DNA from: Escherichia coli
GTDB taxonomy: Bacteria > Pseudomonadota > Gammaproteobacteria > Enterobacterales > Enterobacteriaceae
NCBI RefSeq assembly: GCF_003334255.1
Contig: NZ_QOWU01000085.1
Direction: 5' to 3' (one strand)
DNA length: 10,225 nucleotides
The notes beneath the pieces were generated by a model. It was given only the letters and a program-made list of their open reading frames with translations, was not told where the DNA came from and did not search any database. A program made the position numbers and the translations under genes. How positions within the stretch are numbered: position 1 is the stretch's first letter; each line of letters opens with the position of its first letter. Below, one piece after another: positions 4,687 through 10,225 of the stretch.

Positions 4687-4995
4687 TTAAACGAAGCGGA
4701 TCTGGAGTTTTTTCCCTGTAGCACGGGCGAATTTTTTCAGTGTGGCAAATGATGGGCCGCTTGTACCTGATGCAAGATTGCTTTCCATTCTGGTTATCGC
4801 AGTCGCTTTTGTTCCCATACGTTCAGCAACTTCAGCCTGGGTTAAGCCAGCTTCTTTTCGTGCTGCCAGCATTTCATCAAGTAGTGCGAATTCATCGGCG
4901 ATGGCGTCGTATTCTGCTTTTACTGCGGGGTTAGACAACATTTTTTCTACCATATCATCGTGTGTCATGGTAGGTGGGGTACGTTTACCAGTCAT
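4687..4995 (-). CDS. HTH (XRE-like) antitoxin of a type II toxin-antitoxin pair
   Basis: 102 aa with a strong SD AAGGAGG 6 nt upstream on the minus strand. The HTH GLTQAEVAERMGTKATAITRMES is preceded by a helical N-terminal region. Its start overlaps the 3' end of the upstream toxin gene by 11 nt. Confidence 0.8.
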   Translation of the reverse strand: MTGKRTPPTMTHDDMVEKMLSNPAVKAEYDAIADEFALLDEMLAARKEAGLTQAEVAERMGTKATAITRMESNLASGTSGPSFATLKKFARATGKKLQIRFV

Positions 4996-5326
4996 GCTTA
5001 ACCTCCTTCATTCTGGTTTCAGCTTTTCTAAGCTCGGCAGGTGGAGTTTTTTGCGTTTTCTTTACAAAGCTATGCAACATAATGATTCGCTTTCCTTTTA
5101 GCGTGCAGTAAAAAACACGCCCTATGCCTTCCGAGCCCTTAAGGCGGATTTCAAACAAACCGTCGCCAAATGCCTCTGTATGCGGGGAACCAAGATTAGC
5201 TCCGTAAATACGCATTTTCTCCGTGTACCGAATGTACCGGGCTTGTAAGGTCTCAGGAAGAGAAAGGATCTCAGCTTCAACCTCGTCACTGTAGTATTCG
5301 ATAATGTAGTTCATGAGAGTAAACAT
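4985..5326 (-). CDS. RelE/ParE-superfamily toxin (Gp49/HigB-like) of a type II toxin-antitoxin pair
   Basis: 113 aa from the ATG at 5326. The C-terminal half GRVFYCTLKGKRIIMLHSFVKKTQKTPPAELRKAETRMKEV fits the Gp49/HigB-type pattern. The toxin-first gene order and 11-nt overlap with the antitoxin are typical of HigBA-type modules. The GTG-initiated 42-codon extension in the track ORF is not expected for this family. Confidence 0.8.
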   Translation of the reverse strand: MFTLMNYIIEYYSDEVEAEILSLPETLQARYIRYTEKMRIYGANLGSPHTEAFGDGLFEIRLKGSEGIGRVFYCTLKGKRIIMLHSFVKKTQKTPPAELRKAETRMKEVKHDW

Positions 5327-5386: not shown

Positions 5387-5448
5387 CTTCGCACGCCAGC
5401 AAAATCTGGCGTCGGGATTAGGAACCCCGGATAGAAACCGCGACAGAG

Positions 5449-5470
5449 ACACGCCGCGAGCGTGTTTTTT
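5449..5470 (+). terminator. Intrinsic terminator (acacgc-cgcga-gcgtgt followed by TTTTT)
   Basis: 6-bp stem, 5-nt loop and T5 tract, read directly. It lies about 60-80 nt downstream of the + strand promoter, which would delimit a short transcript. Confidence 0.55.
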
Positions 5471-5633
5471 ATTGTCGTATGCACACGCACATCTGAATTA
5501 TGGTGGGGCGTATAGGGGAGCTGAAAAGCTCGCCGGTTGGTTTCCCGGTAGTTCCTAACCCTGTACGTCTCGCCACCCGATGATTAGGAACCTGACGGTG
5601 GTGATAGTTTAGAAACCACTCGAGGGCGTCATT

Positions 5634-6305
5634 ATGACAACTCAAGTTTCTGTTGAAACACTCTCCACGATTACTTACAAGCAGATCCCCGTTATCACTA
5701 CCGAACTTTTGGCGCACCTTTACGGCACAGAAGCTATTCGTATTCGCCAGAATCACCACGAAAACAAAGGTCGTTTCATTGAGGAAAAACACTTCTTCAA
5801 ACTTGAAGGTGAAACTTTACGTGAGTTCAAGCACAGAGTAGCTTTTAACTACTCTGTGAAAATTGCCCGTAACGTTCGCTCCCTCATCCTATGGACAGAA
5901 CGCGGCGCAGCCCGTCATGCAAAAATGCTCGAAACCGATCGGGCGTGGGAAGTGTTCGAAAAACTGGAAGACTGCTATTTCAGCCAGGGAAAAACAACAC
6001 AAACCGAACAGCAGTCGCAGATTCAGCCACAATTCACAGCCGAGGAAATCATCCTCCTTTGCTACATGCAACTCTGGATGGAAAAAGCCCAGGACCTTAA
6101 CAAGCAGCTGTACCCCATAATGAAAGAGCTGAACTCCTCATACACGAACAAGCTGTATGACATTGCGTTTGAGACTATCTACATGGTGACGAAGAACAGA
6201 GACGCGCTACTAAGGGAGGTAACACGTCTCGACATGTCAAGTTCCGTTATCCAGCGGGCCATGCCAATGCTGAAAAGCCTGCGGGCAAGACAATTTGAAT
6301 TCTGA
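5634..6305 (+). CDS. Roi-like DNA-binding protein (ORF6N-type N-terminal domain, antirepressor-like)
   Basis: 223 aa with SD GAGGG 7 nt upstream. The N-terminal region (TELLAHLYGTEAIRIRQNHHENKGRFIEEKHFFKLEGE...LILWTERGAARHAKMLETDRAWEVFEKL) resembles the ORF6N/Roi-type domain as I recall it. It sits just before ninB, as roi-like genes do in HK022-type nin regions. Confidence 0.55.
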   Translation: MTTQVSVETLSTITYKQIPVITTELLAHLYGTEAIRIRQNHHENKGRFIEEKHFFKLEGETLREFKHRVAFNYSVKIARNVRSLILWTERGAARHAKMLETDRAWEVFEKLEDCYFSQGKTTQTEQQSQIQPQFTAEEIILLCYMQLWMEKAQDLNKQLYPIMKELNSSYTNKLYDIAFETIYMVTKNRDALLREVTRLDMSSSVIQRAMPMLKSLRARQFEF

Positions 6306-6981: not shown

Positions 6982-7272
6982 ATGACAAACCTACGCAAAG
7001 AAGCGCGCGGCAGAGAATGCCAGGTACGGATTTATGGCGTATGCAATGGCAACCCTGAAACTACAGTTCTGGCGCATTACCGAATGGCTGGAATTTGCGG
7101 AACGGGAACAAAGCCAGATGATCTGTTGGCTGCATGGGCCTGTAGTGACTGCCATAATGAAATCGATCGCCGTACTCGCATTCTCGACAACAACGACGCC
7201 AGACTTTACCACCTGGAAGGCGTGATCAGGACGCTGGCGATATTGCTGAAGGAGGGGAAGATTAAGTCATGA
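6982..7272 (+). CDS. YbcO-like protein (DUF1364-type putative nuclease)
   Basis: 96 aa from the ATG at 6982, with GAGGAA 6 nt upstream; the track ORF starts earlier at 6943. RKEARGRECQVRIYGVCNGNPETTVLAHYR and the Cys/His cluster resemble the E. coli DLP12 YbcO as I recall it. It sits immediately upstream of rusA, as in DLP12. Confidence 0.6.
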   Translation: MTNLRKEARGRECQVRIYGVCNGNPETTVLAHYRMAGICGTGTKPDDLLAAWACSDCHNEIDRRTRILDNNDARLYHLEGVIRTLAILLKEGKIKS

Positions 7273-7631
7273 ATGAATATGAGTTTGTGCTTCCCTGGCC
7301 GCCGACGGTGAATACCTACTGGCGAAGACGGGGAAGCCAGTACTACATCAGCGATAAAGGCCAGAAATACCGAAAAGACGTACAGCAAATCATCCGGCAA
7401 CTCAGATTAGACATTTTCACTAAATCACGACTTCGCATCACAATTATTGCTGAACCACCAGATTCCCGCCGTCGCGACCTCGATAACATCCTGAAAGGTT
7501 TACTCGACTCTCTTATCCACGCCGGATTTGCGGAAGACGACGTGCAATTCGATGACATTCGCGTAATTCGCGGCGTGAAAGTGCCTGGCGGTAGAGTGGG
7601 GATAAAAATCACCGAACTGGAGAACATATGA
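7269..7631 (+). CDS. rusA: RusA Holliday-junction resolvase
   Basis: 120 aa. The N-terminus LPWPP and the RRRDLDN motif match RusA, which is also 120 aa in E. coli. Its start overlaps the upstream stop (ATGA). Confidence 0.85.
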   Translation: MNEYEFVLPWPPTVNTYWRRRGSQYYISDKGQKYRKDVQQIIRQLRLDIFTKSRLRITIIAEPPDSRRRDLDNILKGLLDSLIHAGFAEDDVQFDDIRVIRGVKVPGGRVGIKITELENI

Positions 7632-7828
7632 ACGCCACAATTCAAACAATACCGGAATTGCTTATCCAGGCACGAGGCAATATGACTGAAGTTTCACGAA
7701 AACTGAACTGTAATCGTGCTACGGTCAGAAAATATGTCGGTGATAAAGAAGGCAAACGGCACGCCGTCGTCAACGGTGTCCTTATGGTTCATCGTGGATG
7801 GGATAAGGGGAAAGCTACTGATGCGTGA
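7628..7828 (+). CDS. ninH: NinH-like small DNA-binding protein
   Basis: 66 aa. TIPELLIQARGNMTEVSRKLNCNRATVRKYVGDKEGKRHAVVNGVLMVHRGW parallels lambda NinH as I recall it (Fis-like HTH). Its start overlaps the rusA stop (ATGA). Confidence 0.65.
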   Translation: MNATIQTIPELLIQARGNMTEVSRKLNCNRATVRKYVGDKEGKRHAVVNGVLMVHRGWDKGKATDA

Positions 7829-8063
7829 TATTCAGCAGGTGCCTGAACGCATGGCTTTATTCAGGTCGTCTGGAAAAGCGCATGAGCAGCGTAATAGCGG
7901 AGTTCATGGCGAAGAGTATATGAACAGATTATTCGAATGCTATATGAGACTGAAGCACGGAGATCGCTATGACCTGACACGTGATGCTGACGGTTTCTAC
8001 TGCCGTGAAGTTGTGAAACGAATGTTTGAAGTGTGGTGTCATTGTAAAGGATGGGGGCTGTGA
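7821..8063 (+). CDS. Hypothetical small protein (80 aa) between ninH and the Q-like gene
   Basis: The ATG at 7821 overlaps the ninH stop (ATGCGTGA), with GGGGA upstream. The track ORF begins at 7716 but would then overlap ninH by about 110 nt. Cys/His-rich C-terminus (CREVVKRMFEVWCHCKGW). No family recognised. Confidence 0.5.
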   Translation: MRDIQQVPERMALFRSSGKAHEQRNSGVHGEEYMNRLFECYMRLKHGDRYDLTRDADGFYCREVVKRMFEVWCHCKGWGL

Positions 8064-8677
8064 TGCGGCTAACCCCAGTATTCGGCATGGTTAACTTTAT
8101 TAATGATGCTCATTTCCGCCGCATATGGAGGCATCCGAAGAAAATCATTAACTCTCGTCAGAAAGCATGGGTTCACTACATGCTACAGGTATGGGGAAAT
8201 GTTAACGCTGGTGATGATTCTCCTTGTGGTGCAATTAACGTTATTGGGCGACTGATGATTCGCAGTCAGTGGAGCGATGACAAAGCTAAGCAGATTGAGT
8301 CTGTTGTCATGCGTCTGTATGAAGAAGACGGACTACGTGGAGATGAACTCCATCAGAAAGCCCGAGAACTGGTCATCCCTCAGTCATCGGCAGGTAATAT
8401 CATTGCTCTCGCCAAAGAATCCGATGATGCTGCTTTCGTTGAACGTGTGATGGTTGAGACCTTTCATCGTGAAAGCCCTGTCCGTGATGTAGCTATTAGG
8501 CGATATTGCAATCGCGACAGCACGCAAGATATCGCCAGGATGATTTCTCAGATAACAGGAGTTGATATTCAGTATTGCCGGAGGCGGGTCGTGTGGTGCG
8601 AGAGGGTCCTTGATTCAGAAATGTTTTATGCAATGAAGCGAGAATTGGAGAAAGAACTTCTAGTGATTGCTGGATGA
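8063..8677 (+). CDS. Putative late-gene regulator (Q antiterminator-like by position), family uncertain
   Basis: 204 aa from the ATG at 8063, overlapping the upstream stop (TGATG) with a G-rich SD. It is the last gene before a promoter-plus-terminator region and the late-gene start, where Q lies in lambdoid phages. The sequence does not resemble lambda Q as I recall it, so the call is positional. Confidence 0.4.
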   Translation: MRLTPVFGMVNFINDAHFRRIWRHPKKIINSRQKAWVHYMLQVWGNVNAGDDSPCGAINVIGRLMIRSQWSDDKAKQIESVVMRLYEEDGLRGDELHQKARELVIPQSSAGNIIALAKESDDAAFVERVMVETFHRESPVRDVAIRRYCNRDSTQDIARMISQITGVDIQYCRRRVVWCERVLDSEMFYAMKRELEKELLVIAG

Positions 8678-8701
8678 TGCAAAATATTTTTTGTAAATGC
8701 G

Positions 8702-8730
8702 TTGCTTTCGAGAAATGAAAGTAGTATGTT
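8702..8730 (+). promoter_or_regulatory. Candidate late promoter (pR'-like): TTGCTT-N17-TATGTT
   Basis: Hexamers read directly, about 25 nt downstream of the Q-like stop. A terminator lies roughly 110-130 nt further downstream, as in the lambda pR'-tR' arrangement. Confidence 0.3.
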
Positions 8731-8837
8731 TTGTGTATGCTCGGAGCAAAAGCGCACTGAGAAGCGAAAGAGAAATCCTGATTTACCTCGGTCGTCGATA
8801 ATATTTAGGATCGGCATACTGGCTAGATTAGGTAAAG

Positions 8838-8864
8838 GCCTCGGCAGAAATGTCGGGGCTTTTT
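8838..8864 (+). terminator. Intrinsic terminator (tR'-like): gcctcggc-agaaat-gtcggggc followed by TTTTT
   Basis: 8-bp stem including two G-U pairs, 6-nt loop and T5 tract, read directly. Confidence 0.55.
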
Positions 8865-8996
8865 GTTTGCACAACAGGTAAGAGCATTGAACCCGCAGAC
8901 CTCGTGGAATTGGTGAAAGGTGTGCGCAGTGCTCTTATCGTTGTGGTGAAGCTCAATGGCGAGCTAGCAGACAGGCGACTGTGAAAATACTAGTCA

Positions 8997-9068
8997 TGTA
9001 GCGGATCGCCGCGCGTATTGTAATCGGCAGCGCACCGATGGGAGCTGGTTCGATTCCGGCCGCCACAA
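8997..9068 (+). tRNA. tRNA-like element, possibly a degenerate tRNA or tRNA remnant (anticodon-position triplet GCG)
   Basis: It has a canonical T-arm (gctgg-TTCGATT-ccggc), a 7-nt acceptor 3' strand cgccaca, and an anticodon-like arm (atcgg-cagcgca-ccgat). But the acceptor 5' strand tgtagcg gives one A-C mismatch, there is no convincing D-arm, position 33 is A, position 37 is C, and no CCA is encoded. A second acceptor/D-arm-like fragment lies at 8942..8964. Confidence 0.3.
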
Positions 9069-9383
9069 TCCAAACTGAGCCGTAGCCTCTGGGTGTCCTG
9101 AATTCATCAGTGATAGTTACGCTGCGGCCTTCTACATACGATTTTTGTGAAAAGCGGGTGGCAAGAGGCTGCGAAATTTTTAAATACCTCACAATTCCAC
9201 AGCTTGATGATTGTCTGGCTGCCGGAGAATTTGTTAAAAATTGCATCGCGTGGTGAATCCCCCTCAGCGGCGGGGCATCTGGCAAAGTGTATGATCCAGC
9301 GAACATGCAAATTCAGTAGCCAGGCTGAATTTACCGGGAGGCACCTGGCACCATGCGACAGACAGAAATTAGGCTATACTTCA

Positions 9384-9406
9384 GCCCCTCTCCGGAGGGG
9401 CTTTTC
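9384..9406 (+). terminator. Intrinsic terminator of unit 1 (gcccctc-tccg-gaggggc followed by TTTTC)
   Basis: Perfect 7-bp GC-rich stem, tccg tetraloop and T tract, read directly. Confidence 0.75.
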
Positions 9407-9596
9407 TGTGCAGGATGTGTCACAGTTTCCTGAATTCTGAGTACTGTCCTGTTACTCAGGGTGCTATATTTTCTGACGTGATGAAAGTCTGCCGGAAGGC
9501 GGAACGTATCGGAAATGACCCAGTAGAGAAAACGTTGACTCAGATACCGATGCTGAGTTACCGGGAAACCGGCATCACATGACCGCTATCCTTCCA

Positions 9597-9619
9597 GGCT
9601 CGCTCCGGCGGGCCTTTTT
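9597..9619 (+). terminator. Intrinsic terminator of unit 2 (ggctcgc-tccg-gcgggcc followed by TTTTT)
   Basis: 7-bp stem with one G-U pair, the same tccg loop as the other two units, and a T5 tract. Confidence 0.7.
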
Positions 9620-9866
9620 ACTGCAGAAAACAGTTTTCCCGTAAAATGCCACGTTACTCACAATTCAGGCTGGCGATTATTGTCTGGCCAGCGGGAAGTT
9701 TGTTAAAAAAATATGGCATGGTGAATCCCCCTGTGCGGAGGGGCATATCAGCGACAGGTGTTTGGTCACACCCCTTATCCTTTCTGGTGCGGGTTCAGGT
9801 GCTGATACTGAACTCACCGGGAGGCACCCTGCACCATGCATGAACGGTACATAGCGCTACTCTCCA

Positions 9867-9890
9867 GCCCCTCTCCGGAGGGGCTTTCTT
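9867..9890 (+). terminator. Intrinsic terminator of unit 3 (gcccctc-tccg-gaggggc followed by TTTCTT)
   Basis: Stem and loop identical to the unit 1 terminator, read directly. Confidence 0.75.
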
Positions 9891-9897
9891 GTTGGAT

Positions 9898-9926
9898 AAA
9901 AAAAAGCCCGCGCCGGGAAGCGCGGG
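9898..9926 (-). terminator. Minus-strand intrinsic terminator (cccgcgc-cgggaa-gcgcggg preceded by an A8 run on the + strand)
   Basis: 7-bp GC stem read directly. On the minus strand the hairpin is followed by a T8 tract. With the unit 3 terminator it forms a back-to-back bidirectional stop. Confidence 0.6.
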
Positions 9927-10127
9927 TGGCAAGGAATAAACAACAAAACGTGAAGTGATCAATTTTCAGCTGGCGAATAATACCTGATAGTAATCACTCT
10001 GCGCAACTGTATGGTCTTTTTCGTATTGCGGGCTGTAGTCATCCTCCTGTTTCTGAACCCTTGTCCATGACTGACGTCAGCCCGCACCTTATCTTGATTG
10101 CATACACTATCCCTGCCGGGAGGAATA

Positions 10128-10225
10128 ATGGCATTTAAACACTATGACGTGGTCAGGGCATCATCGCCGTCAGACCTCGCAGGAAAACTGACGCAAAAAC
10201 TGAAGGAAGGCTGGCAACCCTATGG
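10128..10225 (+). CDS. 5' end of a phage gene running off the window (hypothetical; possibly the small conserved protein often found upstream of lambdoid lysis genes)
   Basis: ATG at 10128 with SD GGGAGGA 6 nt upstream. The reading frame MAFKHYDVVRASSPSDLAGKLTQKLKEGWQPY stays open to the window end. The family suggestion is a vague recollection only. Confidence 0.5.
   Translation, partial: MAFKHYDVVRASSPSDLAGKLTQKLKEGWQPY

Follow-up and report, generated by a model that had tools for sequence, protein, structure and literature searches.

The closest described relatives of the RNA genes analysed here are STnc100 and PasD, which have been judged to be of common ancestry, PasD1 and PasD2 being validated and Hfq-associated (bioRxiv 10.64898/2026.05.13.724894). 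In EHEC EDL933, RNA-seq showed 11 transcribed STnc100 copies, one of which (STnc100_4) was verified by Northern blot (PMC5331693). Hfq binding and target pairing of PasD1/2 were detected by RIL-seq (PMC8550237), and the same two properties are attributed to EcOnc13 as cited in PMC8550237. The 5′ end of PasD2 is known from Northern blot and RNA-seq, and the PasD seed is UGUGAG (PMC8550237, table S6 and fig. S5). Over half of the complete E. coli genomes have this curated prophage sRNA family in one form or another.

We analysed a window of 10,225 nt (the whole stretch of E. coli DNA under study) that carries three related units in tandem. All three belong to a prophage sRNA family that has been catalogued before, so that their identification is largely ordinary and of low novelty. 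By analogy with the RNAs above, we consider it probable (roughly 0.8) that the units are three tandem, independently transcribed base-pairing sRNA genes of the prophage STnc100/PasD family, with different seeds.

Genomic setting of the array

The carrier is an E. coli lambdoid prophage with 100% identity to phage PhiR5_2 and strain G1/2. A Q-like antitermination protein gene (8051..8677, + strand; PHROG phrog_753 “anti-termination protein Q-like”, E-value 3.5e-68) is followed by three head-to-tail RNA gene copies and then by a NanS-p-type esterase gene (from 10129), with holin and lysozyme genes also on the downstream side of the array. The array occupies the cargo slot, from Q to the late genes, that was proposed in a preliminary description of this DNA; the Q-like gene is its upstream boundary, and the esterase and lysis genes lie downstream. 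Relatives of the units also adjoin lysis genes, and the setting is that of RF02076, namely the late-regulatory region of lambdoid prophages in Enterobacterales. The Q-like gene is labelled as a hypothetical protein by RefSeq.

The stretch 9097-9930, to which the units had been assigned, does contain all three, and their true limits are ~9211-9893. At its start, 9097-9188 lies outside unit 1 (promoter from ~9211, RNA from 9248) and forms part of a block (8860-9173) with ~92% identity to the stretch directly after tR′ in phage HK75 and relatives. At its end, the hairpin at 9907-9926 is the minus-strand terminator of a convergent fourth candidate sRNA gene (9900..10086, - strand; terminator 9926-9907 from the terminator scan). 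This candidate has 81% identity to the EPEC RIL-seq sRNA candidate E2348C_1409.E2348C_1408.IGR and a fold z-score of -3.05, and it is outside the repeat family.

Assignment of the three units to an RNA family

Three tandem, diverged units with TCCG-loop terminators had been seen in the sequence, and the terminator hairpins were located at 9383-9402, 9596-9615 and 9866-9885 (+ strand), in a region that holds 11 terminator-like sites versus 1.9 ± 1.6 in shuffled sequences. The alternation of conserved and variable blocks between units 1 and 3 was likewise reproduced: blocks of 75-88% identity recur at a spacing of 468-483 nt, with unrelated blocks between them. All three units could be aligned over their whole length. 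Each comprises a putative sigma-70-type promoter, a closed multi-helix 5′ domain of 105-124 nt, a linker of 15-26 nt and a TCCG-loop terminator.

The preliminary description could match the units to no known RNA family, which proved wrong: the Rfam scan that it had suggested returned STnc100 (RF02076; gathering threshold: 47 bits) for unit 1 with 138.7 bits (9218-9411) and for unit 3 with 129.9 bits (9687-9896), both far over the threshold and both covering the whole 206-position model. Unit 2 aligned to the same model full-length at 30.0 bits (E-value 4.5e-5), under the threshold. Our own covariance model (R1) found exactly three copies in the window, at 9245-9359 (97.2 bits), 9473-9583 (40.6 bits, E-value 1.9e-6) and 9713-9842 (99.6 bits). 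Unit 2 is a diverged paralogue in the STnc100/PasD family; it is carried by 673 of 5426 complete E. coli genomes, and as its subfamily falls below the Rfam threshold it is missed by annotation pipelines. The consensus fold of RF02076 was recovered, with a closing helix around hairpins of CCCC/GGGG, UUCAG/CUGAA and CCGGG/CCCGG and then the terminator.

Further relatives were collected from genome contigs with a sequence pattern (17 specified bases and a 31-step gap) that was too loose: of the 120 loci returned, ~105 were removed as chance hits in unrelated phyla, which left 15 real copies. Other tandem arrays were present at loci L094, L097, L083 and L076, in E. albertii (L136) and in Superficieibacter (L142); arrays of the family consist of 3-5 genes in tandem with different linkers.

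The view that the units are homologous structured RNAs, that is paralogous sRNA genes and not coding sequence, is upheld by the Rfam matches, by covariation and by length differences not divisible by three (the domain in relatives measures 105, 112, 113, 114, 115, 118, 119, 122, 125, 129, 130, 133 and 135 nt). The units were not found to be pieces of any known repeat or mobile element, one of the outcomes that had been named as speaking against this view.

Promoters, linkers and terminators

Each unit appears to have its own sigma-70-type promoter. For unit 1 (9211..9241, + strand) it would consist of a -35 element TTGTCT (9211-9216), an 18-nt spacer, TG at 9232-9233 and a -10 element TAAAAA (9235-9240). 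The unit 3 promoter (9680..9709, + strand) has TTGTCT at 9680-9685, an 18-nt spacer, TG at 9701-9702 and TAAAAA at 9704-9709, and is conserved with unit 1 and the rest of the family. For unit 2, an extended -10 element, TGcTATATT (9462..9470, + strand), was read from the sequence as the probable equivalent; it ends 6-7 nt before the start of helix P1, as in other family members. Across 59 distinct upstream sequences the geometry is TTGxCx, 18 nt, TAAxxx, 4-7 nt and the first base of P1, which is also the mapped 5′ end of PasD2. Together, this 5′ end and the conserved -35/-10 geometry place the first 29 positions (1-29) of the Rfam RF02076 model in the promoter DNA, not in the RNA. A generic promoter scan called no + strand promoters for the units. 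The same scan reported look-alikes on the reverse strand (TTAACA-16-GACAAT at 9237-9210 and 9706-9679), which were discounted, since they are conserved in neither unit 2 nor PasD and the PasD2 5′ end agrees with the promoter on the + strand.

The linkers of unit 1 (GACAGACAGAAAUUAGGCUAUACUUC, 9357..9382), unit 2 (GACCGCUAUCCUUCC, 9581..9595) and unit 3 (AUGAACGGUACAUAGCGCUACUCUCC, 9840..9865), all on the + strand, are mutually unrelated and are unpaired or weakly paired in single-sequence folds. They are presumed to be the seed regions, by analogy with PasD, whose seed UGUGAG lies within its linker; the unit 1 linker occupies the same position as this seed, and those of units 2 and 3 are assigned by position. 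The intrinsic terminators (terminator scan, + strand) are AGCCCCUC-UCCG-GAGGGGCU followed by UUUCUGUG in unit 1 (9383..9410), AGGCUCGC-UCCG-GCGGGCCU followed by UUUU in unit 2 (9596..9620) and AGCCCCUC-UCCG-GAGGGGCU followed by UUCUUGUU in unit 3 (9866..9893). A Rho-independent terminator with a U tail after a single-stranded segment is the arrangement of Hfq-class sRNAs; the U tails here (UUUUCUGU, UUUUU and UUUCUUGUU) are short and interrupted, and weaker than ideal Hfq 3′ sites. Family-wide, the tail consists of a linker of 21-27 nt, in at least 10 different types, and then the terminator.

Helices of the 5′ domain

The 5′ domain of unit 1 (9248..9356, + strand; placed by Rfam, R1 and the single-sequence fold) contains P1 (9248-9255/9349-9356), P2 (~9260-9275), P4 (9309-9316/9325-9332) and P5 (9334-9348), and the single-sequence fold gives P1, P4, P5 and the terminator with a z-score of -3.13. 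In unit 2 (9476..9580, + strand; Rfam 30 bits, R1 40.6 bits and centroid fold), P1 is formed by ACGUGAUG (9476-9483) with CAUCACAU (9573-9580), P2 is UCUGCC-GGAA-GGCGGA, P4 is 9537-9543/9553-9559 and P5 is CCGG-GAAA-CCGG; P1, P2, P4, P5 and the terminator all appear in the centroid fold (z-score -2.44). The domain of unit 3 (9716..9839, + strand; Rfam 129.9 bits, R1 99.6 bits and fold) has P1 at 9716-9723/9832-9839, P4 at 9791-9798/9808-9815 and a P5 with one C.U mismatch; folded alone, unit 3 reaches a z-score of only -1.22 and is no stabler than shuffles. The stems “ttcag...ctgaa” with differing loops that had been noticed in the sequence correspond to helix P4.

The preliminary description had also suggested a test for compensatory changes, and these were found. 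When 65 distinct domains were aligned by sequence alone (MAFFT), 92% of the cells were paired and both partners had changed in 11 of 26 pairs, with a covariation score of 0.200 compared to 0.128 in shuffles (0 of 500 as high) and ≤ 0.101 when the partners were slid. In the model-fitted alignment, both sides change in 17 of 26 pairs, with 0 of 500 shuffles as good for every measure. These statistics are cell-based, not event-based. Covariation backs P1, P2 and P4 across relatives; P5 is almost invariant, which leaves its pairs uninformative either way.

A pseudoknot within the 5′ domain

The P4 loop pairs with the strand directly after P2 to form a pseudoknot: CUGGC (9279-9283) with GCCAG (9319-9323) in unit 1, AUCGG (9508-9512) with CCGAU (9547-9551) in unit 2 and AUCAGC (9747-9752) with GCUGAU (9801-9806) in unit 3. 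The two strands co-vary in at least 15 sequence types, including relatives in Citrobacter, Enterobacter, Leclercia and Pantoea, and at least 8 sequence types from viral contigs show complementarity between them. The MAFFT alignment places the pseudoknot's 5′ strand in three registers, owing to a length difference of 1-2 nt after P2; since this ruled out a column-based count, alignment-free tests were used. Permutation at the level of sequence classes gave 8 of 20000 as good, and 1 of 20000 when only Watson-Crick pairs were counted. Thirteen held-out relatives from other genera added further sequence types, on which a first test (longest helix, G.U allowed) was modest, with 2184 of 200000 permutations as good. 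The energy test with objectively defined loops was decisive: over 18 pooled types, the duplex energy with the RNA's own loop was -7.4 kcal/mol versus -2.6 kcal/mol with the loops of other RNAs, and 0 of 200000 permutations were as good.

In the nested consensus of the Rfam match, the strand after P2 is paired locally, without contact to the P4 loop, and the pseudoknot goes unmentioned in a recent paper on the family's structure. The strongly co-varying pseudoknot predicted by these comparisons as a conserved part of the shared 5′ domain thus appears to be a feature that we have not found described before. Its covariation is unusually rich. Like the diverged unit 2 subfamily, the tandem arrays and the promoter part of the Rfam model, it is potentially useful to those who study these RNAs.

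Proposed working of the array and alternative explanations

In a lysogen, the unit's own sigma-70-type promoter would initiate each RNA at the first base of the 8-bp P1, and the strong intrinsic terminator would stop transcription ~145-178 nt on. The first 105-124 nt would form a compact domain in which P1 encloses P2, the variable P3, P4 and P5, together with the pseudoknot; our preferred guess is that this conserved domain stabilises the RNA. The linker (15-26 nt, single-stranded), the terminator hairpin and the U tail would make up the usual Hfq-binding 3′ module, and the linker would bear the seed for target mRNAs, by analogy with PasD1/2. Since no linker resembles another, the array would provide three regulators that share a conserved scaffold and differ in their target sets; with 3-5 such genes in an array, a phage would deliver several regulators in compact form. 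In the lytic phase, Q-modified RNA polymerase that has started at pR′ would pass all three terminators and continue into the esterase and lysis genes. The analysis itself shows that the units belong to the family, which fold and pseudoknot they share (by covariation), that the promoter geometry is conserved and where the terminators lie; discrete transcripts, Hfq association and the position of the seed would carry over from other copies in the literature. We infer that these copies are expressed and that their linkers act as seeds on target mRNAs.

The functional unit might instead be the pseudoknotted 5′ domain, acting as a protein- or ligand-binding decoy, a sponge or a sensor, with the linker secondary or with two functions in one RNA. 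This possible but doubtful reading draws on the conservation of the domain, which is far higher than that of the linker (GGUGAAUCC and CCGGGAGGCACCCGGCACCA hardly vary across the range from E. coli to Pantoea), on its closed multi-helix architecture with a co-varying tertiary contact, on the joining of one domain type to at least 10 different tails and on the insensitivity of PasD abundance to hfq loss. However, the domain has no known partner or ligand and matches no Rfam riboswitch or ribozyme family even at E-values up to 10, and the RIL-seq chimeras of PasD lie in the last 50 nt at the 3′ end, as expected of ordinary seed pairing; the stability is explicable by 5′ structure that protects against RNase E, in which case the invariant unpaired bases would not be needed. 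With similar reserve, we tentatively suggest that STnc100/PasD RNAs may be modular, consisting of a ~110 nt pseudoknotted domain with its own function (such as host or phage protein binding, small-molecule binding or a nuclease-resistant cap) on which phages swap seed-plus-terminator tails and whose genes they stack. A function of its own would explain why selection keeps the scaffold, not the seed. Two other origins for the repeats were rejected. A derivation of the domain from tRNA, conceivable because P5 abuts the 3′ strand of P1 like the T arm and the acceptor stem, found no support from the tRNA model; ARAGORN returned no tRNA or tmRNA anywhere in the window, and the only sub-threshold tRNA match (8942-9068) lies outside the units. 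Type III toxin-antitoxin RNA repeats were dismissed on the grounds that the units are ~230 bp with their own promoter and terminator and that no toxin gene follows.

Location between tR′ and the late genes, and the order of aptamer-like domain, linker and terminator, would also suit cis-acting elements of the late operon, either a triple terminator that shields the esterase and lysis genes against read-through in the lysogen or riboswitch-like or antitermination leaders for the same genes. In addition, GAGGGGC in the 3′ arm of P2 is complementary to GCCCCUC in the 5′ arm of the commonest terminator, which would allow an alternative structure. By-eye examination found this alternative pairing possible in units 1 and 3, but it is absent in unit 2 and PasD; moreover, every unit has its own conserved putative promoter directly upstream of P1, units 1 and 2 each precede another unit rather than a coding gene, and the genes that follow family members are unrelated, being lysis genes in some cases and a porin-like gene or a lipoprotein gene in others. 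PasD itself occurs as a discrete and abundant RNA, with chimeras formed in trans (PMC8550237). We therefore regard a cis-acting role as improbable, with insulation possible as a side effect of three strong terminators. Small proteins are very unlikely to be the products, even though open frames of 55-97 codons are present (9147-9440, 9415-9582 and 9646-9843), three hypothetical proteins are annotated here in the PhiR5_2 record and ribosome profiling in EHEC shows appreciable coverage on some STnc100 copies (RCV up to 3.2). Coverage is low on most EHEC copies, RefSeq PGAP annotates nothing in the 1.45 kb, the frames cross promoters and terminators, indels between relatives have lengths not divisible by three, and the substitutions form compensatory pairs. 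Three base-pairing sRNA genes with different seeds remain our preferred reading.

Comparison with known RNAs

STnc100 (RF02076, “Gammaproteobacterial sRNA STnc100”) has its helices, terminator and prophage context in common with units 1 and 3. PasD1 and PasD2 of EPEC E2348/69 (EcOnc13 in EHEC) share the fold of the units, with P1 at the 5′ end, P2, the pseudoknot (AAUGAUC with GAUCAUU), P4, linker and terminator, and PasD2 scores 41.4 bits on Rfam STnc100 and 45.4 bits on R1. The gene position is also alike, downstream of Q and just upstream of a sialate esterase gene. Unlike the units, PasD has a truncated P5, a longer linker (~45 nt) with UGUGAG and a different terminator, and its copies are reported to be dispersed whereas the units are in tandem. 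The PasD seed TGTGAG is absent from the + strand of 9211-9893 in all three units and their linkers are unrelated to that of PasD; the units are thus relatives of PasD rather than variants of it.

AgvB, AsxR, StxS, Esr41 and PasA/PasC occupy the same slot between Q and the lysis genes in lambdoid prophages and are Hfq-associated regulators expressed in lysogens, but they are 60-90 nt long, without a comparable 5′ domain, and do not match the units in sequence or structure; an Rfam search of 8650-10225 at E-values up to 10 gave no riboswitch, ribozyme, AgvB, AsxR or Esr41 match. OmrA/OmrB, PrrF1/PrrF2 and Qrr1-5 resemble the units in that homologous sRNA genes lie side by side or occur several times, have individual promoters and terminators and serve overlapping or diversified target sets. 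These are chromosomal core genes in which the seed or the Hfq module is conserved and variation is located elsewhere, whereas the units are phage cargo that conserve a large 5′ domain and vary the presumed seed.

Three tandem STnc100-type sRNA genes

A terminator scan placed TCCG-loop terminators at 9383-9402 (unit 1), 9596-9615 (unit 2) and 9866-9885 (unit 3), and counted 11 terminator-like sites in the region, where shuffled sequence gave 1.9 ± 1.6. Four blocks with 75-88% identity, spaced 468-483 nt apart and with unrelated sequence between them, are common to units 1 and 3, and a three-way alignment showed unit 2 to be built on the same plan. The three terminated units, and the alternation of conserved with variable blocks in units 1 and 3, were thus recovered as given in a preliminary description; its range of 9097-9930 contains the units but is too wide at both ends, 9097-9188 belonging to an HK75-like block and 9907-9926 being a minus-strand terminator. 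An Rfam scan assigned unit 1 (9218-9411) and unit 3 (9687-9896) to the prophage sRNA family STnc100 (RF02076) with 138.7 and 129.9 bits, respectively (threshold: 47), so the earlier failure to match them to an RNA family is resolved: the observation was real and its interpretation right, yet the object is a known family. Unit 2 (9447-9622) matched STnc100 over its full length below the threshold (30 bits; E-value: 4.5e-5). Relative to STnc100, its closing helix changes from UGGUG/CACCA to UGAUG/CAUCA and a hairpin from UUCAG/CUGAA to CUCAG/CUGAG, and a hairpin of CCGGG-AGGCA-CCCGG becomes CCGG-GAAA-CCGG, all compensatory. Unit 2 alone is widespread, being carried by 673 of 5426 complete E. coli genomes. 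Relatives differ in length by amounts not divisible by three, and this, together with the compensatory changes, excludes a coding reading for practical purposes and bears out the view of the units as homologous structured RNAs.

The order of unit 1, unit 2 and third copy recurs in two IMG/VR loci (L094 and L097), and an E. albertii locus carries unit 1-type and third copies at a matching spacing of 467 nt (L136). Three copies of the domain occur at a further locus (L083), five in an IMG/VR contig (L076; four within 900 bp, 6982-7882) and three in Superficieibacter electus (L142; 257-nt spacing, 12813-13430, minus-strand orientation), where the pseudoknot sequence is different in each copy.

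Prophage setting

The 1.45 kb around the units matched temperate phage PhiR5_2, the E. coli G1/2 chromosome and 16 further complete E. coli genomes at 100% identity. In the RefSeq record the stretch with the units is unannotated; a “hypothetical protein” of 615 nt lies upstream, and a carbohydrate esterase of the SASA family lies downstream, followed by holin, lysozyme and lysis protein. With the upstream gene identified as a Q-like antiterminator (8051-8677; phrog_753, E-value: 3.5e-68) and the esterase and lysis genes downstream, the units therefore lie in the lambdoid prophage cargo slot from Q/pR'/tR' to the late genes, in agreement with the placement proposed earlier.

The block at 8860-9173 is ~92% identical to DNA just past the annotated tR' of phage HK75, and at about 92% identity it is also present in the post-tR' region of several Salmonella and E. 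coli phages. Within it, a plus-strand element at 8942-9068 reached 26.5 bits with the Rfam tRNA model, for which the threshold is 29; it fits the model in the acceptor stem and in the D and T arms, but has 74 nt in place of the 18 model positions that separate the D arm from the variable region (anticodon arm), and ARAGORN called no tRNA there. This element could represent either a tRNA gene that was disrupted or an RNA that resembles tRNA. Further upstream, isrK (69.2 bits) adjoins C4 antisense RNA (66 bits) at 5393-5580 on the plus strand, ahead of an ORF6N-domain gene (5634-6305) that is probably an antirepressor; together these would form an immunity module of the P1/P7 c4-ant type, carried by a lambdoid prophage. 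The annotation of the identical RefSeq record also places genes for a RelE/ParE-family toxin and an HTH antitoxin in the prophage early region, on the minus strand at about 4687-5300 (L001 2008-2635).

A fourth candidate sRNA gene (9900-10086, minus strand) is convergent to unit 3 and ends in a terminator at 9926-9907 (CCCGCGC-TTCC-CGGCGCGGG, then T8). No Rfam family matched it; it folds with a z of -3.05 and shares 81% identity with the EPEC RIL-seq sRNA candidate E2348C_1409.E2348C_1408.IGR, whose EHEC homologues are EcOnc08/21/42. In many other prophages, too, this element comes after STnc100-type terminators.

Nested fold and covariation

Relatives were gathered from IMG/VR by a pattern across the P2 hairpin, which yielded 128 copies at 120 loci, representing 64 distinct domain sequences. 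When 65 distinct domains were aligned by sequence alone with MAFFT (A2), 92% of cells in the four nested helices were paired, and 11 of 26 pairs showed both-sided, structure-preserving changes, as the preliminary description would predict; at column pair 6-134, for example, 39 sequences have A-U and 20 have G-C, and at pair 88-110 the split is 37 G-C to 24 A-U. Covariation scored 0.200, compared with 0.128 ± 0.005 in shuffled alignments (0/500) and ≤0.101 with partners slid. A covariance model built from A2 detected three copies in the window, and its own alignment of 64 distinct hits gave both-sided changes in 17 of 26 pairs (0/500 for all five measures); because that alignment is fitted to structure, more weight is placed on the A2 result. 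Single-sequence folding agreed with the fold for units 1 and 2 (z: -3.13 and -2.44, respectively) and was uninformative for unit 3 (z: -1.22).

The P2 hairpin (CCCCCU...GGGGC) is nearly a copy of the terminator hairpin of its own unit, GCCCCUC-UCCG-GAGGGGC (9260-9275 and 9383-9402 in unit 1; 9728-9744 and 9866-9885 in unit 3), so a strand-swapped alternative pairing is possible in these two units; unit 2 and PasD lack it.

Pseudoknot

In every sequence class, the 5-7 nt right after P2 are complementary to the P4 loop, with sequences that vary by class: CUGGC with GCCAG in unit 1, AUCGG with CCGAU in unit 2, AUCAGC with GCUGAU in unit 3, AAUGAUC with GAUCAUU in PasD, and CUGGUG with CACCAG, CCAGUC with GACUGG, GCCAGUC with GACUGGC and CAGUUA with UGACUG in other classes. 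Since the 5' strand occupies three registers in the alignment, the pseudoknot was tested alignment-free. With loops permuted among classes, the observed total helix length was reached in 8 of 20000 permutations (1 of 20000 for Watson-Crick pairs only). A held-out set of 15 family members from GTDB species genomes (Citrobacter werkmanii, a Citrobacter sp., four Enterobacter genomes, Superficieibacter electus, Leclercia adecarboxylata, Pantoea stewartii, E. albertii and one MAG) added further types, such as UAGGUC/GACCUG, GCUAGGC/GUCUAGC, CCAGUUG/UAACUGG and GAGCCACAA/UUGUGGCUU. For 18 types, the terminal loop in the fold of the P4 hairpin was taken as an objective definition of the loop; the mean duplex energy of the post-P2 strand was -7.4 kcal/mol with its own loop and -2.6 kcal/mol with the loops of the other 17 types; no permutation was as good (0/200000), and in 11 cases the own loop was the best of the 18. 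The paired stretch has one or two unpaired bases on its 5' side and one on its 3' side, a geometry that presumably resembles a kissing-loop contact.

Promoters, linkers and terminators

The 59 distinct upstream sequences have little similarity beyond one common promoter geometry: a -35 of TTGACx, TTGTCT or TTGAAx, an 18-nt spacer that often ends in TGT, a -10 of TAAAAA, TAAATT, TAACGT or TAATCT, and 4-7 nt to the first base of P1. Units 1 (-35 at 9211-9216, -10 at 9235-9240, start at 9248) and 3 (9680-9685, 9704-9709 and 9716, respectively) follow it on the plus strand, and unit 2 has an extended -10 (TGcTATATT, 9462-9470; start at ~9477), also on the plus strand. The 5' end of PasD2 (741157), assigned from RNA-seq coverage and Northern blot size (PMC8550237, table S6), coincides with the first base of P1; together with the promoter geometry, this puts the first 29 positions of the Rfam model, with the conserved UGUUAAAAA among them, in the promoter and not in the transcript. 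At units 1 and 3, a generic scan returned minus-strand promoter look-alikes (9210-9237 and 9679-9706; TTAACA, 16 nt, GACAAT), which are the plus-strand -10 and -35 blocks read as reverse complements and probably a coincidence of the quasi-palindromic ATTGTC...TGTTAA.

Past P1, most family members have a linker of 21-27 nt and then the terminator, most commonly GCCCCUC-UCCG-GAGGGGC, the source of the “tccg loop” first noticed; in members without a nearby terminator, one lies 110-180 nt further on, with lysis or moron genes still adjacent. Near-identical domains carry at least 10 unrelated linker types, and the linkers of units 1, 2 and 3 are GACAGACAGAAAUUAGGCUAUACUUC, GACCGCUAUCCUUCC and AUGAACGGUACAUAGCGCUACUCUCC, respectively. 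The PasD seed UGUGAG, which lies in the PasD linker and was defined from the motif CUCACA in RIL-seq targets (PMC8550237), was not found on the plus strand of units 1-3.

Proposed function

The best-supported reading is that the units are three autonomous sRNA genes. They have the family membership, fold, pseudoknot, promoter geometry and terminators described here; expression, Hfq association and seed position would be as in PasD and the EHEC copies, from which they are borrowed, and we infer expression and targets for these three particular copies. In the lysogen, each unit would make an RNA of about 145-178 nt, with a compact pseudoknotted domain as its 5' part and, as its 3' part, a linker, terminator hairpin and U tail that may serve as the usual platform for Hfq and target pairing, so that three unrelated linkers on one scaffold would give three target sets. 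Read-through of terminators by Q-modified polymerase is established lambdoid biology, and upon induction such polymerase should read through those of the units.

The 5' domain might instead be the real effector, through protein or ligand binding. Conservation falls on the domain and not on the seed, its unpaired stretches are invariant, and PasD levels do not drop in Δhfq (log2FC: +0.55 and -0.18) while those of PasA, PasB and PasC do; we nevertheless regard this reading as doubtful. A main role as a cis-acting leader or terminator cassette is unlikely because every unit has its own promoter and the units follow one another, although insulation of the late genes by three terminators must arise as a side effect.

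Comparison with known prophage sRNAs

All 11 STnc100 copies of EHEC EDL933 are transcribed, one was confirmed by Northern blot, and ribosome coverage is low for most (PMC5331693). Stx2 phages carry a copy 75 nt downstream of stx2B, and STnc100 RNA was detected in outer-membrane vesicles (PMC12370729). PasD1 and PasD2 are abundant sRNAs of 172-173 nt in EPEC E2348/69 that Hfq RIL-seq uncovered and Northern blotting confirmed (PMC8550237); they share a common ancestor with STnc100 according to Zhu, Shabalina and Storz (bioRxiv 10.64898/2026.05.13.724894). PasD2 scored 41.4 bits on the Rfam STnc100 model, and its gene lies downstream of Q and immediately upstream of an esterase gene. The words “pseudoknot” and “promoter” are absent from the text of that preprint, and the cmscan consensus line of the Rfam STnc100 matches pairs the strand after P2 locally, with no P4-loop contact. 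Because copies of PasA and of PasD are dispersed rather than in tandem according to the preprint, the arrays are a small addition to this picture. What is new is modest: a sub-threshold paralogue (unit 2), the array arrangement, the reading of the Rfam model's 5' end as promoter, and a well-supported pseudoknot.
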